A stretch of DNA of 6,236 nucleotides from a virus. The notes under the pieces are model-generated. The model worked only from the letters and a program-made list of their open reading frames with translations, ran no database searches and was not told the DNA's origin. The stretch is taken from IMG/VR virus record IMGVR_UViG_3300045988_075588, positions 1-6,236 of that record; one strand, 5' to 3'. A program made the translations under genes and the position numbers. The stretch's first letter is position 1; the number at the start of each line of letters is the position of its first letter. Below, piece after piece: positions 1,734 through 6,236 of this stretch.

Positions 1734-1941
1734 CACCTCGAGGCCGGGTGGCCAAGGGTGTATAACGGGAGGGTGAGGTATGCCTTAATCCGGGAGACAG
1801 CTACCTTAAGACCTGGATAAGGAAGTGACGTGCACCCGACCTACGGTCGTGGTGTGCGACTTCGTCGATATCAAGGTGCTAGTCGCTAAGGAGGGCTATG
1901 CGCCCTCTATTGCACCATCACCGTTCAAACGCCACGGAGGC
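1734..1941 (+). other. GC-rich, densely self-complementary non-coding island. It is a candidate ssDNA replication signal (complementary-strand origin) or a structured RNA. No family is recognised.
   Basis: Base composition shifts sharply from the A-rich genome. Helices paired by eye: 1783-1794/1812-1822 (11 bp, one bulged A, one G-T); 1832-1857 (about 10 bp, 3-nt loop) flanked by gaagt 1822-1826/acttc 1859-1863; gagggc 1891-1896/gccctc 1902-1907 enclosed by ggtgc 1875-1879/gcacc 1912-1916; ccgt 1921-1924/acgg 1934-1937. The only ORF here (1825-2034, GTG start) has atypical composition and runs through the promoter. Confidence 0.6.
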
Positions 1942-2053: not shown

Positions 2054-2212
2054 ATGAAAACTAAAAAATTACAAACAAAAGATTTAAGAGCGTTAAGAGA
2101 CCAAATGTACAATCTTATGCAAGATTCAATATTGAGTGAAAGCGAAAGGTATATTATACAATCAGCTGCACTAGTGTTATGTGATTTGATTAAATTGAAA
2201 AAGGGAGAATAA
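2054..2212 (+). CDS. Hypothetical small protein, 52 aa (MKTKKLQTKDLRALRDQMYNLMQDSILSESERYIIQSAALVLCDLIKLKKGE). It is below the ORF-track length cutoff.
   Basis: ATG at 2054 is preceded by a perfect AAGGAGG (2043-2049, 4-nt spacer). It is the first ORF downstream of the predicted promoter. The A-rich codon style resembles the other genes, and the TAA stop is at 2210-2212. Confidence 0.55.
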   Translation: MKTKKLQTKDLRALRDQMYNLMQDSILSESERYIIQSAALVLCDLIKLKKGE

Positions 2213-2221
2213 TTCTCCCTT
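2201..2221 (+). other. 9-bp hairpin whose 3-nt loop is the stop codon of the 52-aa ORF
   Basis: aagggagaa (2201-2209) / taa loop (2210-2212) / ttctccctt (2213-2221) is a perfect inverted repeat. No clear T tract follows, so a terminator role is uncertain. Confidence 0.6.
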
Positions 2222-2239
2222 AATAAAATATATGTTATT

Positions 2240-2419
2240 ATGAATAAATACACTTTAATATTTGAAAATGGCGATTCTATAAAAAAAATAGAAAAGTCAA
2301 CCAAGGCAATATTACGTAACAACTACGAATCAATTACATGGTTAGAAGAAAACGACGCAAGAGTAAAAAAACTAATCAATAATGGATATTGGATAAAAAC
2401 AATTATATGTATTAACTAA
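2240..2419 (+). CDS. Hypothetical small protein, 59 aa (MNKYTLIFENGDSIKKIEKSTKAILRNNYESITWLEENDARVKKLINNGYWIKTIICIN). It is below the ORF-track cutoff.
   Basis: ATG 2240 to TAA 2417-2419, translated by hand. It is on the same strand and has the same composition as its neighbours, and it fills an otherwise empty 200-nt stretch. Confidence 0.5.
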   Translation: MNKYTLIFENGDSIKKIEKSTKAILRNNYESITWLEENDARVKKLINNGYWIKTIICIN

Positions 2420-2433
2420 AAAAACAAAAAATT

Positions 2434-2634
2434 ATGGCAGCAACAAAATTTACAGCAATTTACGTAAACAACGAAGGAAAAGTAATCGAAAGAGAAATTC
2501 CAGGTATGAATACTTACAAAATAGCAGAAAAATTCGCTATAATATTAAATAATCCAGAAGAAACCAAATTAGTATGTGTAATAGAAACATGGAAATTATA
2601 TCCTAAAGAAAATGAAAAAACCGAAAAAGATTAG
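2434..2634 (+). CDS. Hypothetical protein, 66 aa
   Basis: ORF-track entry with an ATG start. It is part of the same-strand tight array, and its 3' end overlaps the next ORF by 23 nt. No recognisable motif. Confidence 0.55.
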   Translation: MAATKFTAIYVNNEGKVIEREIPGMNTYKIAEKFAIILNNPEETKLVCVIETWKLYPKENEKTEKD

Positions 2635-2866
2635 AAAATATGAAGCAGGGGGATATATTTTCGATACATTCAAAGAGCTAAAAAAATACGTGTACTTCAG
2701 CACATCAATAAAAATGAAAAAAATTTGTTACGAACTAGATGAAGATGTTATTACAAAAAAATATATCTTCACAAAACAAGAAAGGAGGTTAATATGTGAA
2801 AAAATTTATGACAAAGATGAAGAAGATTTAAAAGAATGGAATCAAAAACAACTTAAATTATTTTAA
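2612..2866 (+). CDS. Hypothetical protein, 84 aa, Lys-rich N-terminus
   Basis: ORF-track entry. It overlaps the upstream ORF and its TAA is 2 nt before the next ATG. No recognisable motif. Confidence 0.55.
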   Translation: MKKPKKIRKYEAGGYIFDTFKELKKYVYFSTSIKMKKICYELDEDVITKKYIFTKQERRLICEKIYDKDEEDLKEWNQKQLKLF

Positions 2867-2868
2867 AC

Positions 2869-3075
2869 ATGAAAATAACCGGAAACCAATGGGTAGAAAT
2901 TATTCGAGCTATATCTACGGCAATCATTGCTATAATTACGACCTTATGTGTGCAGTCGTGTACAATGAGTATGAGCATAGCGAAGAACAACAACAATGCA
3001 ACGCAACAGACGGAGCAGAAAGCAACAGCAAGCGCTGACAGTGTAAAAATTAATATCAATCCTAAAAAACATTAA
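2869..3075 (+). CDS. Small membrane-anchored or lipoprotein-like protein, 68 aa. It is a candidate lysis or superinfection-exclusion factor.
   Basis: MKITGNQWVEIIRAISTAIIAIITTLCVQSCTMSMS... carries an N-terminal hydrophobic segment of about 20 aa. It ends in VQSC, a possible signal peptidase II lipobox-like site. A polar N/Q/T/K-rich tail follows. Junctions on both sides are TAA-NN-ATG. Confidence 0.6.
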   Translation: MKITGNQWVEIIRAISTAIIAIITTLCVQSCTMSMSIAKNNNNATQQTEQKATASADSVKININPKKH

Positions 3076-3077
3076 AA

Positions 3078-3344
3078 ATGGAAAGAGAATTTAACGACAT
3101 GAAAGACGTATTCAAAGTGCTACCAACAACACAAGAAGAAAAAGAATACATGATTGTGATTGGAAAACATTTAGCAACAACAGAAAAATTCCCAACACGC
3201 GAAGCAGCAGAAGAAAAAATCAACGCTGTAGACTGGAATCTAGTTGCAGCGATGATATATGCATGCAAAGAAGCGGACGAATACGAAAAAAAATTAAACG
3301 CTCTACAAAAAAAGAATATTAACAAATCTAAAAAAGAAAACTAA
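3078..3344 (+). CDS. Hypothetical protein, 88 aa, acidic with a basic C-terminal tail
   Basis: ORF-track entry. It lies immediately upstream of VP1 with a 2-nt spacer. No recognisable motif. Confidence 0.6.
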   Translation: MEREFNDMKDVFKVLPTTQEEKEYMIVIGKHLATTEKFPTREAAEEKINAVDWNLVAAMIYACKEADEYEKKLNALQKKNINKSKKEN

Positions 3345-3346
3345 CC

Positions 3347-5281
3347 ATGGCAATACATAAAAATATTGGTAAAAACACCATAGGAGACAATAATAAAATG
3401 TCCGTAAGTCTACATGATTACAACATGTCGACACACGATTTATCAACAATCGTAAGAAACACACAAAGTCCGGGAACACTAGTTCCAAATCTATGCCTAG
3501 TAGCTCAAAAAGGAGATACATTTGATATCGACATCAATTCAAACGTACTTACACATCCAACAACGGGACCTTTGTTCGGTTCATTCAAACTAGAACATCA
3601 CGTATATACGGGACCGGTAAGACTATATAATAGTTGGTTACACAATAACCGGACAAAAATTGGACTGAACATGGAGCAAGTAAAATTGCCACAAATGAAA
3701 GTGAAAATAAAAACATTGTCGGATAGTCCTTCAAATGAAGAAACACAATGGATACAAGTAAATCCAAGTTGCCTACTAACTTATCTAGGTATCAGAGGAT
3801 ACGCTAATACACCCAATAGCGGAGAAGGAGAAGTAAGTAAAAATGCACTGCCTATATTGACATATTTTGATATATTCAAAAATTACTACGCAAACACGCA
3901 GGAAGAAAATTTCTACATGATTGGAACATCTCCAAAACTAGCAATAACAATAGGCGGCATAAAGATAACAGACCCAGACAACATAACAACCACCGAAGGA
4001 GCAGTAAACAACGGTAGTTCAATAACCATATTACCAACAACACTAAAAGAAAACGAAATAAAATTCAGGGTAAAAACATCATTACAAGCAAGAGAACAAG
4101 TAATGACAACGGAACAACTAGGGGATATAGAAATAGTCAGTAGCAAATGGAAACTAACAACAAACCTAATACCAACGGGGCAAACATGGTATATAACAGC
4201 AGTATATACAACAAAAAGAACATCTCTGGAAAAATATCCGCTAGAAAACCTAGATACAATCAGAGATAAAATACTAATGAGACCGGGAGATATGGTACTT
4301 GACATATCAAACGAAAGCATGAGCGTTGCACCATTCACAAATTTTGCGAAAAGAGACAACCAAGATATTTTAAACACAGCCTTTACACAATATGGACTAT
4401 GCCTAAAAACATACAACAGCGATATATATCAAAATTGGATTAACACCGAATGGATAGAAAGCGTAACCGGAATCAACGAAGCAAGTGCGGTGGATGTAAA
4501 AGACGGCAAACTATCCATGGACGCACTAAATTTAGCACAAAAAGTATACAATTTCCTAAACAGAATTGCAATAAGCGGAGGTACTTACAGAGATTGGCTG
4601 GAAACAGTATACACAGGCGGAAACTACATGGAAAGATGCGAAACTCCAATGTTTGAAGGAGGAGTAAGTCAGGAAATCGTATTCCAAGAAGTAATAAGCA
4701 ACAGCGCAAGCCAAGACGAACCGCTAGGAACACTAGCGGGAAGAGGCGTAACAACGGGACGCCAAAAAGGTGGACACATCCGAATCAAAGTAACAGAACC
4801 ATGTTATATAATGTGTATATGCTCAATCACGCCACGTATCGACTACGGACAGGGTAACACATGGGATACATATCTAAGCACTATGAATGATTGGCACAAA
4901 CCAGCACTTGACGGAATTGGATACCAAGATTCATTAAACGGTGAAAGAGCATGGTGGACGGACCACATTAAAACCAACGGAGGACCATTAGTAAAAACAG
5001 CAGCCGGGAAAACTGTAGCGTGGATAAACTACATGACAAATGTAAACAGGACATTTGGCAACTTCGCGCCAGGAATGCCAGAAAGCTTCATGGTACTTAA
5101 CCGAAATTATTCAATGAACAACGAAGGTCAAATAGAAGATTTAACAACTTATATTGACCCGGTAAAATTCAATTACATCTTTGCAGACACAAACCTAGAC
5201 GCCATGAATTTTTGGGTACAAACAAAATTTGACATCAAAGTAAGACGTCTAATCAGTGCAAAACAGATTCCTAACCTATAA
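3347..5281 (+). CDS. VP1: Major capsid protein (Microviridae F / VP1 jelly-roll)
   Basis: 644 aa. The conserved microvirus capsid blocks appear in the expected order: HDLS...GTLVP...KGDTFDI near the N-terminus; LPILTYFDIFKNYYAN; ALNLAQKVYNFLNRIAISGGTYRDWLETVY; ETPMFEGG; PLGTLAGRG; EPCYIMCICSITPRIDYGQG; KPALDGIGYQD. Confidence 0.97.
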   Translation: MAIHKNIGKNTIGDNNKMSVSLHDYNMSTHDLSTIVRNTQSPGTLVPNLCLVAQKGDTFDIDINSNVLTHPTTGPLFGSFKLEHHVYTGPVRLYNSWLHNNRTKIGLNMEQVKLPQMKVKIKTLSDSPSNEETQWIQVNPSCLLTYLGIRGYANTPNSGEGEVSKNALPILTYFDIFKNYYANTQEENFYMIGTSPKLAITIGGIKITDPDNITTTEGAVNNGSSITILPTTLKENEIKFRVKTSLQAREQVMTTEQLGDIEIVSSKWKLTTNLIPTGQTWYITAVYTTKRTSLEKYPLENLDTIRDKILMRPGDMVLDISNESMSVAPFTNFAKRDNQDILNTAFTQYGLCLKTYNSDIYQNWINTEWIESVTGINEASAVDVKDGKLSMDALNLAQKVYNFLNRIAISGGTYRDWLETVYTGGNYMERCETPMFEGGVSQEIVFQEVISNSASQDEPLGTLAGRGVTTGRQKGGHIRIKVTEPCYIMCICSITPRIDYGQGNTWDTYLSTMNDWHKPALDGIGYQDSLNGERAWWTDHIKTNGGPLVKTAAGKTVAWINYMTNVNRTFGNFAPGMPESFMVLNRNYSMNNEGQIEDLTTYIDPVKFNYIFADTNLDAMNFWVQTKFDIKVRRLISAKQIPNL

Positions 5282-5294
5282 AAATTATAACATT

Positions 5295-5612
5295 ATGAAA
5301 TATTCAAAACCAACAAAAAACAACGGGAGACTAGAATCCATAGAAATTTATGAAGGCGAAAGCATTGAAACAAAATGCGCAAGAGTACTGGAAAGTGGTG
5401 AACCAATCACAGACACCGCACCAATAATCTATACAGCAAAAGAAGATGGAGTACTACCGGCATACAATATCCGTACAGACAGATTCGATATCGCAATGGA
5501 CGCATACGATAAAATAACAAAAAATTCGGCAAAAAAGGAAATAGCACCTAAGCCGGAAAATTTCGGAAATGTACCTAATAAAACAGACGGAGGGTCACCA
5601 AGTGAAAACTAA
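5295..5612 (+). CDS. Hypothetical 105-aa acidic/Pro-rich protein. It may be an internal scaffolding (VP3-like) protein, inferred from position only.
   Basis: The ORF-track ORF 5256-5612 overlaps the VP1 end. The ATG at 5295, 13 nt after the VP1 stop, is the more parsimonious start. The gene lies between VP1 and VP2. No motif that I can name with confidence. Confidence 0.65.
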   Translation: MKYSKPTKNNGRLESIEIYEGESIETKCARVLESGEPITDTAPIIYTAKEDGVLPAYNIRTDRFDIAMDAYDKITKNSAKKEIAPKPENFGNVPNKTDGGSPSEN

Positions 5613-5639: not shown

Positions 5640-5712
5640 TTGTAGGTAACAAGCACTTCGGAGTATTGTCCGGTTAAATTACCGGATAATACACGAAAGT
5701 ACGCACCTACAA
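5640..5712 (+). other. 73-nt rod-like imperfect hairpin (about 28 bp). It is a candidate ssDNA replication/packaging signal or an RNA structure.
   Basis: Four helices paired by hand. Basal helix 5640-5647/5705-5712 (8 bp). Then 5653-5654/5703-5704 (2 bp). Then 5655-5660/5694-5700 (6 bp, one bulged A). Apical helix 5663-5674/5681-5692 (12 bp including one G-T) with loop taaatt. Confidence 0.7.
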
Positions 5713-5736
5713 TTTAATATCAAGTAATATGAATAT

Positions 5737-5756
5737 CGCTTTGAAACATCAAAGCG
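5737..5756 (+). other. 8-bp hairpin 18 nt upstream of the VP2 start
   Basis: cgctttga (5737-5744) / aaca loop / tcaaagcg (5749-5756) is a perfect inverted repeat. Confidence 0.55.
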
Positions 5757-5773
5757 CGAAAATGTAAATAATT

Positions 5774-6236
5774 ATGATAGGAGCAATAATGGGAATAGGA
5801 GGAGCTCTAATGGGAGCACTCAACGCAAATAGCGCAAGCAGCCAAAGTTGGCAAAAGCAACACCAACTAATGGAAATACAAGCTGAATTGAACAGGAAAA
5901 ACGCCAAATTCAATACAGCCCAGGCAAAAGAAATGTGGAATTACACCAACTTTGAAAACCAAATGAAACACATAAAAGAAGCAGGACTAAGCCCGGGATT
6001 GATTTATGGAATGGGAGGACAAGGGGGTTCGACACAAGGAGCAGGAGCTGCAAACGGAGTAGGACTACCTCAAGACCAATCCGTAGGAATGGGTCTAAGA
6101 GCACAGGAAATCGGAGTAGAAATGGCAAACGCACTAAGTCAAATCAAACTTAACGAAAGCCAAGCAGACAAAAACAATGCCGAAGCAAATAAGATTAAAG
6201 GCGTAGATACAGAAGCACAAAAAGCTACCATTGACA
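5774..6236 (+). CDS. VP2: VP2-like DNA pilot / minor capsid protein, N-terminal part. It runs off the window end, and bases 6182-6236 duplicate 1-55.
   Basis: The ATG at 5774 is the first start after an in-frame TAA at 5765-5767, and no stop occurs up to 6236. Hand translation gives MIGAIMGIGGALMGALNANSASSQSWQKQHQLMEIQAELNRKNAKFNTAQAKEMWNYTNFENQMKHIKEAGLSPGLIYGMGGQGGSTQGAGAANGVGLPQDQ... The N-terminus is a glycine-zipper-like hydrophobic segment and a Gly-rich stretch follows, as in microvirus pilot proteins. The ORF is absent from the ORF track because it is truncated at the window edge. Confidence 0.8.
   Translation, partial: MIGAIMGIGGALMGALNANSASSQSWQKQHQLMEIQAELNRKNAKFNTAQAKEMWNYTNFENQMKHIKEAGLSPGLIYGMGGQGGSTQGAGAANGVGLPQDQSVGMGLRAQEIGVEMANALSQIKLNESQADKNNAEANKIKGVDTEAQKATID
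6182..6236. repeat. Terminal redundancy copy 2, identical to 1-55
   Basis: Exact 55/55 identity with the window start. Confidence 0.97.

Follow-up and report, generated by a model that had tools for sequence, protein, structure and literature searches.

The virus record IMGVR_UViG_3300045988_075588 of the IMG/VR database (6,236 nt; below, "the window" means this whole stretch of DNA) is a complete circular microvirus genome. Its bases 1-56 are repeated at positions 6181-6236, and this 56-nt terminal repeat stems from circular assembly. All long open reading frames (ORFs) of the window are on the plus strand. They encode a pilot protein that spans the window ends (approximately 5774 to 630), Rep/VP4 (633-1673), a block of small ORFs (2054-3344), the capsid protein VP1 (3347-5281) and a small protein ending at position 5612. 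Between the end of the VP4/Rep gene at position 1673 and the next credible ORF at position 2054 there is a gene-free gap, 1674-2053. This gap contains a GC-rich island of hairpins, considered here as a candidate replication signal. The conserved core of the island, approximately 190 nt long (1758-1945), was delimited by nhmmer and covariation; its working strand is presumably the T-rich minus strand. The gap and the unusual composition of the block had already been pointed out in a preliminary description of this DNA, made from the sequence without database searches, and both were confirmed: the GC content is 0.515 in 1701-1900, as compared to 0.24-0.47 in the rest of the window.

Conserved structure of the island

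The region 1730-1945 folds better than dinucleotide-shuffled sequences, as had been anticipated in the preliminary description. This is true for RNA folding of the plus strand (-89.7 kcal/mol, z = -3.45) and the minus strand (z = -3.27), and for DNA folding of the plus strand (z = -3.82).

Covariation was scored for five helices, H2, H3, H3b, H4 and H5, on 39 diverse copies of the island. Standard pairs are formed in 95.6% of cells, as compared to 81.2% in shuffles, and none of 500 shuffles reaches the observed value. When the partner is slid by one to three columns, 27-51% of cells are paired. Double-sided changes are observed at 19 of the 28 pairs (158 cells). One-sided (wobble) intermediates occur in two cells only, and nearly all changes lead directly from one Watson-Crick pair to another. 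In DNA, where a G-T wobble would hardly be tolerated, such near-absence of one-sided intermediates is what one would expect, and it is a hint that the pairing takes place in DNA. The structure of the island is under selection, and the conservation and covariation in relatives on which the earlier proposal depended have been found.

Helix H2 (1831-1841 with 1845-1856) is a long hairpin with one bulged T; seven of its 11 pairs have changed on both sides, and 86-94% of cells are paired. Helix H3 (cgac ttc gtcg, 1857-1860 with 1864-1867) is paired in 100% of cells, with double changes in 14 of them; its third pair is GC in 26 copies, AU in eight and CG in five. It is followed by an unpaired linker ATATCAAGGT (1868-1877), whose complement ACCTTGATAT resembles the nick site of phiX174 and is discussed below. 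The mini-hairpin H3b (gc tagtc gc, 1878-1879 with 1885-1886) has just two base pairs. Nevertheless, it is paired in 100% of cells and has two independent compensatory changes, G-C to A-U in four sequences and C-G to U-A in one. Helix H4 (ggagggc tatgc gccctct, 1890-1896 with 1902-1908) has both sides changed in six of the seven pairs. In helix H5 (ccgt tcaaacgcc acgg, 1921-1924 with 1934-1937) the alternative pairs are well represented, the counts being CG:22, GC:15 and UA:29, CG:9.

The hairpins H2, H4 and H5 had been noticed earlier by eye (as 1832-1857, 1891-1907 and 1921-1937, respectively), and all three are now supported by covariation; H3 and H3b had been missed. The other pairings suggested by eye were less fortunate. 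The proposed extension of H2 by 1822-1826/1859-1863 clashes with H3. In the pairing ggtgc/gcacc (1875-1879/1912-1916) the 3' partner varies together with H4 and not with ggtgc, and the pairing gcgac/gtcgc (1856-1860/1882-1886) is broken in relatives. The stem 1783-1794/1812-1822 is kept in the window's own subtype of the island, but not in other subtypes. A long-range closing helix GCACC/GGUGC, predicted by RNAalifold, was rejected as well: it is compensated in just two of approximately seven informative variants and is supplanted by a local extension of H2 that covaries (C-G to U-A, A-U to G-C).

The mixed alignment analysed by RNAalifold contains two island subtypes that differ in the 3' part. 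In the window (1902-1916), and at the equivalent positions of type II, a short copy of the H4 3' arm is situated 5-6 nt downstream of the arm itself. This copy covaries with H4 in both subtypes (CCCTCT..CTCC, CTCCCT..CCCT, GCCCTAG..CCCTG), which suggests alternative pairings or a structural switch.

The boundary motif TATAAC-GGGAGGG (1761-1773; CCCTCCC-G-TTATA on the minus strand) was identified by its invariance: T9, A10, T11, A12 and G17 are the same in all 39 copies. On the minus strand this motif forms the 3' border of the hairpin domain.

The island is non-coding. No reading frame is conserved, an open frame spans the island in only four of the 39 copies, and the best frame and strand differ from copy to copy. 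All 157 indel runs in the island alignment have lengths that are not multiples of three. The conserved ORF in the homologous region that would have contradicted the preliminary description is thus not kept. Its statement that the island belongs to no recognisable family also stands: the Rfam 15 scan produced no match in the island at E-values up to 10 and none in four relatives at E-values up to 1, and ARAGORN found no tRNA or tmRNA in the island.

Additional hairpins are situated upstream of the core. U1 (1685-1711; acacagcc..actgtgt followed by tttt) was read from the sequence, and its subtype-specific counterparts, with compensatory changes, are present upstream of every island. U2 (1733-1761; acacc..ggcc gggt ggcc..gggtgt) was derived from the minimum free energy structure. 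It is retained in window-type relatives, and other hairpins take its place in other subtypes. Downstream of the core, a simple promoter scan detected the plus-strand promoter of the following gene block (1996-2026; TTTG, spacer, TAtaTTTG), which we take to be of the Bacteroides type. The same arrangement TTTG..TAnnTTTG is observed 3' of the island in relatives. Judging solely by these downstream motifs, the host of the island phages probably belongs to the Bacteroidales. Upstream of the island, no Bacteroides-type TTTG/TAnnTTTG was seen by eye, and the simple scan of the window yielded neither a promoter upstream of the island nor a terminator downstream of it. Thus the promoter and the U1 hairpin, both noted previously, do exist, but the terminator-like nature ascribed to the latter was not borne out by the scan.

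Distribution and orientation

A sensitive blastn search with the gap against 50,697 phage records yielded 27 microvirus records with 75-88% identity. The matches fall within unannotated stretches or are covered by hypothetical ORFs of doubtful status. Similarity to the window over the whole genome is seen in only one record, and therefore the island is far better conserved than its surroundings. Copies were then gathered by pattern scans and an nhmmer profile, with matches scoring 65-162 bits. The full element (approximately 190 nt) was found at 104 loci, representing 93 distinct sequences, all in microvirus-size contigs. One of the IMG/VR contigs, L080, has a length of 12.1 kb and contains the island twice, being a head-to-tail dimer. 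In 185,579 bacterial and archaeal species genomes (one genome per species) the 25-nt degenerate core has no matches. All matches found by a 15-mer scan of the genomes lack the full element, and a VP1 search produced one mis-binned 4.9-kb contig and no prophage. The island is confined to microviruses.

Two microvirus lineages carry the island. Phages of the short-Rep lineage, which includes the window, have Rep proteins of approximately 325-346 amino acids, and their VP1 and VP4 are 37-85% and 39-97% identical, respectively, to those of the window. Phages of the long-Rep lineage have Rep proteins of 443-611 amino acids with an overprinted ORF of approximately 175 amino acids. They belong to the same Pfam Rep and capsid families, but tblastn found no match to the window proteins in them. 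In the short-Rep lineage the island is on the gene strand, directly after Rep. In the long-Rep lineage it is on the strand opposite to all genes and is convergent with the pilot or capsid gene, towards whose 3' end it points.

The nucleotide composition of the two lineages is mirrored. At four-fold sites, the coding strand has A 0.64 and T 0.14 in the short-Rep lineage, and T 0.69 and A 0.12 in the long-Rep lineage; the C and G values are mirrored too. The same is true for genomes retrieved via Rep alone: the coding strand is A-rich in 70 of 70 short-Rep genomes (approximately 0.5-0.86) and T-rich in 77 of 77 long-Rep genomes (approximately 0.46-0.73). Orientation of the island follows this asymmetry. 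In 71 unique copies the island is on the gene strand and the coding strand is A-rich at four-fold sites; in the other 22 the island is opposite the genes and the coding strand is T-rich. Hence, in each of the 93 unique copies, the A-rich strand is the one that carries the window-plus sense of the island.

The identity of islands from different lineages reaches 93% (loci L350 and L280), and at least three island subtypes are common to both lineages. Therefore the island has moved between the lineages several times, and its orientation with respect to the strand asymmetry has been the same every time. The strand rule is not a matter of simple inheritance. The preliminary description is also corrected in that the element is not lineage-specific: it is a cassette shared by two unrelated microvirus lineages. 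Its distribution is patchy, as it is present in 26 of the 70 short-Rep and 11 of the 77 long-Rep genomes, and near-identical islands can be accompanied by very different Reps.

In long-Rep genomes lacking the island, the same place after the pilot gene is occupied by another GC-rich multi-hairpin element of approximately 330 nt (GAGCGATATACACCCGCCGCCCGCGTAGGGC.., GCGAAGCCCCTAGTTGTGT.., ACGCACAACTCACAC). It was found in approximately 40 of the 77 long-Rep genomes (L354-L399 and other loci). It has several modules in common with the island, namely the minus-strand loop of H5, GGCGTTTGA, and the sequences ACTTCCTTAT and TATACACCC, which suggests that the two elements belong to a wider family built of shared modules.

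Packaged strand and site 2

The coding strands of phiX174, Chp2 and SpV4 are T-rich at four-fold sites (T 0.59, 0.51 and 0.65, respectively), and in all three phages the coding strand is, we assume, the packaged one. By analogy, the T-rich strand would be packaged in the island phages as well. In the window this is the minus strand, and its origin-like motifs suggest the same.

The strongest of these motifs is found outside the island. Site 2 (5698-5756, minus strand) is a non-coding, hairpin-flanked sequence AGCG..TTACTTGATATTAAAT..GGTGCGTAC, identified by its match to phiX174 and by a profile. It (TTACTTGATATTAAAT..GCGTAC) coincides with the phiX174 nick region ACTTGATATTAA at 12 of 12 positions. 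The site 2 profile matched 66 of 70 short-Rep genomes and none of 75 long-Rep genomes; in all but one of the 66 the site is opposite to the genes. It is often found in a hairpin loop, as in the distant environmental relatives that are among the matches. Site 2 is a likely candidate for the rolling-circle (Rep) origin of the short-Rep clade. In Chp2 and SpV4, ACTTG occurs in hairpin loops on the T-rich coding strand. Site 2 was also considered as a dif-like site, as by eye it matches 8 of 11 positions per arm, but the dif consensus scan gave no match. The site is conserved in environmental relatives too, so an origin is more likely than a dif-like site. A near-perfect hairpin of approximately 73 nt (5640-5712; ttgtaggt..acctacaa) adjoins site 2, and is the source of the sole Rfam match in the window, mir-3578, at a chance-level E-value of 1.4.

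Possible function of the island

The best explanation of these observations, whose probability we estimate at about 0.45, is that the island acts in cis as a strand-specific signal for DNA replication, in the form of folded single-stranded DNA. Most likely it would be a complementary-strand origin on the packaged strand, resembling single-strand origins (sso) and single-strand initiation (ssi) sites, and corresponding to oric of G4, the primosome site of phiX174, the minus origin of M13 or a plasmid sso. After infection, the packaged circle would fold into hairpins H2, H3, H3b, H4 and H5 together with the upstream hairpins. A host priming enzyme, either primase or RNA polymerase, would recognise this fold and begin primer synthesis where it ends, with the conserved TATA/GGGAGG boundary as the candidate start. 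The single strand would then be converted into the double-stranded replicative form. The signal would work only on the packaged strand, that is, probably, on the T-rich strand (window minus). The cassette could be exchanged among microviruses of the same host because it would be read by host enzymes and not by the phage Rep.

A folded intergenic replication signal had been among the first suggestions for this region, and it remains the best fit, given the absence of coding capacity, the covariation and the uniform orientation, although several helices proposed by eye were wrong. One more correction is suggested by the composition and the origin-like motifs: if the minus strand is packaged, the working form is the reverse complement of the strand that had been folded.

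A strand-tied orientation, a fold, the lack of coding capacity, exchange independent of Rep, and patchiness are together what is expected from published single-strand origins. As in ssi and sso elements, non-coding status is combined with selected intrastrand pairing. An sso works only on the leading strand, is non-reversible, approximately 160 nt long and highly structured (PMC5703833); its position is flexible, it limits the host range and is shuffled as a cassette (PMC5703833; PMC5714925). The plasmid origins ssoA, ssoU, ssoT and ssoW resemble the island in their structure, their flexible position relative to rep and their shuffling. They function in a single orientation, on the displaced strand, and the strand-tied orientation of the island copies would be an indirect parallel to this. 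These origins, however, reside on rolling-circle plasmids of Gram-positive bacteria and rely on RNA polymerase for priming. By this analogy, the island would be a single-strand-origin-like signal of a known sort, here moving as a phage cassette.

Among phage systems, the primase-dependent ssi of G4, oric, is similar in being an intergenic hairpin cluster on the packaged strand of a microvirus, provided that the packaged strand of the island phages is assigned correctly. In G4, primer synthesis begins at the 3' border of the hairpin cluster of the template, which reads CCCTACTG / ..GTCCCTACTG (annotated primer 3970-3997, origin 3998). On the minus strand, the hairpin domain of the island ends with CCCTCCC-G-TTATA or CCCC-TATA, and the likeness to G4 is an analogy only. 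The island is longer (approximately 190 nt plus the upstream hairpins) and contains more helices, and its probable hosts are Bacteroidales, as opposed to E. coli for G4. In M13/f1, as here, one non-coding region of a single-stranded DNA phage contains several hairpins, which in M13/f1 carry strand-specific replication signals. However, these phages are filamentous, their region includes a hairpin for packaging as well as a defined site where RNA polymerase makes the primer, and there is no homology to the island.

Several observations speak against a complementary-strand origin. The island has no alignable homology to any characterised ssi or sso, neither to G4 oric nor to the RSB and CS-6 motifs of ssos. 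The RSB motif is absent, and the resemblance consists of the CS-6-like hexamer TAGCGA on the minus strand (PMC6395029), which is partly in a covarying stem, and the CCC..TA boundary. The data on the folding strand point both ways: three terminal G-U pairs, which are nearly invariant, speak for the plus strand, and an internal A-C (pair 89/104, with 14 unpaired cells; A-C in nine of 26 type-I copies) speaks for the minus strand. Of 64 copies, 47-49 have a slightly better fold on the plus strand. The strand rule derives from two phage lineages and approximately three or four transfers, not from many independent events. Unlike in phiX174, Chp2 and SpV4, the coding strand of the isolate phiMH2K (L268) is A- and C-rich and G-poor at four-fold sites (A 0.45, C 0.25, T 0.24, G 0.07), and its best origin-like hairpin is on this A-rich coding strand. 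Thus composition may not always report the packaged strand, or else the polarity of phiMH2K may deserve a check. Finally, Bacteroides phage phiHBP1 (L420, PV598014), the only cultured microvirus of Bacteroides or Bacteroidota, has a T-rich coding strand (T 0.69), but contains neither the island, nor site 2, nor the 330-nt element, and so a Bacteroides host does not require the island.

If the island is nevertheless a complementary-strand origin, it provides a concrete candidate of approximately 190 nt, with defined helices, for the signal converting single strand to duplex in microviruses outside the phiX174/G4 group, which are among the commonest human-gut phages. Sharing of the cassette would then mean that horizontal transfer among microviruses involves replication signals as well as genes.

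A broader proposal, which we put forward tentatively and consider somewhat less probable than its opposite, is that the polarity of the packaged strand can be read from the island. Virions of the short-Rep clade, which comprises Alpavirinae-like phages and related phages from the environment, would then contain the complement of the mRNAs, and unrelated microviruses would trade a host-specific priming cassette, always onto the packaged strand. The polarity is a more surprising claim than the cassette. In the short-Rep clade, the composition mirrors that of phiX174 and the phiX-like origin motif is opposite the genes. If these are indeed negative-sense microviruses, the textbook rule that genes are on the virion strand needs revising. 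Even a single gene on the complementary strand of a microvirus has been described as highly unusual (Roux et al. 2012, PMC3394797). A literature search found no description of the island, nor of complementary-strand genes as a clade-wide feature of microviruses.

Alternative explanations

The island could have some other strand-specific DNA function, being a binding site of Rep or an accessory protein that controls the switch to the synthesis and packaging of single strands, or a signal for termination or pausing. The strand rule and the structural conservation are equally consistent with this possibility; many copies contain a sequence similar to a Rep site, and the alternative partner of the H4 5' arm, which covaries with H4 in both subtypes, suggests a structural switch. 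However, exchange across unrelated capsid and Rep proteins argues for a reader supplied by the host rather than a phage-specific one, and we know of no packaging signal in Microviridae apart from the Rep origin. We consider such functions unlikely.

Slightly less likely still is a structured non-coding RNA of approximately 190 nt that would have the window-plus sense, with GGGAGG, downstream of the TATA-like box, as its start. The z-score of the plus-strand fold, the terminal G-U pairs on this strand and the conserved TATA..GGGAGG 5' boundary would agree with an RNA, and the size and multi-helix design are those of RNAs comparable to riboswitches and ribozymes. On the other hand, an RNA gives no reason for an orientation that stays tied to compositional asymmetry through repeated transfers. 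In the long-Rep lineage it would be antisense to the upstream gene, converging on its 3' end, and would have to do without a promoter. Moreover, the covarying pairs have almost no G-U intermediates, the window has neither a promoter upstream nor a terminator downstream of the island, and Rfam contains no matching family. The variant in which the island is the 3'-end RNA of a genome-length transcript, mentioned in the preliminary description, cannot hold in the long-Rep lineage, as there the island is antisense to every gene.

The third possibility is a rolling-circle (viral-strand) origin, in which the HUH nuclease Rep would nick the minus-strand linker CACCTTG^ATATCG, compare CAACTTG^ATAT cut by the gene A protein of phiX174. 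The minus-strand segment 1878-1849, CACCTTGATATCGACGAAGTCGCACACCAC, matches phiX174 positions 4299-4328, CAACTTGATATTAATAACACTATAGACCAC, at 10 of 11 positions around the annotated nick and in A.ACCAC at the same spacing. The linker motif is always on the T-rich strand, and the long-Rep lineage has no other non-coding CTTGATAT. However, the match over the whole 30-mer (18 of 30) is no better than in shuffles, and in phiX174 itself the origin is an unstructured stretch of 30 bp within gene A. The apparent invariance of the linker was an artefact, as copies had first been collected with an exact 15-mer. In genomes collected by Rep the linker is GATATCAAGG, GATACTAAGG or GATACTATGG, even when Rep is approximately 90% identical to that of the window; therefore the G^A site is not kept, and in such close relatives the phiX174-type cleavage sequence is replaced by CCTTAGTAT or CCATAGTAT. 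The island is shared across Rep families, and its near-identical copies coexist with very different Reps. Site 2, which is on the same strand and clade-wide, is a better counterpart of the phiX174 origin than the linker. Two cleavable origins in direct orientation should give sub-genomic circles, as in two-origin plasmids of phiX174. The linker as a Rep nick site was dropped on the strength of the 30-mer score, site 2 and the Rep-based sampling, and we regard this function of the island as improbable.

Least of all can we credit an attachment site for lysogeny, be it host-derived, as earlier suggested, or dif-like: temperate relatives with flanking dif-like sites exist among Bacteroidetes microviruses (PMC3091885), but the island core is absent from all the species genomes searched, the 28-bp dif consensus is not matched anywhere in the window with up to three mismatches allowed, the VP1 search revealed no prophage, no prophage junctions were found inside 1758-1945, and an attachment site needs no covarying hairpins over some 190 nt.

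Additional features of long-Rep genomes

The upstream flank of the long-Rep island loci (approximately position 5276 in L346) contains a conserved non-coding motif TGGCGAAGCCTATTTCA on the coding strand, adjoining the island. A related motif, GCGAAGCCCCTAG, is present in long-Rep relatives that lack the island. Motifs of this type are candidates for the long-Rep clade's own origin. The ORF overprinted on the long Rep gene in another frame (approximately 175-179 amino acids; 579-1106 in L254, 4424-4963 in L029) is present in most long-Rep genomes and recalls gene B of phiX174, which lies inside gene A.

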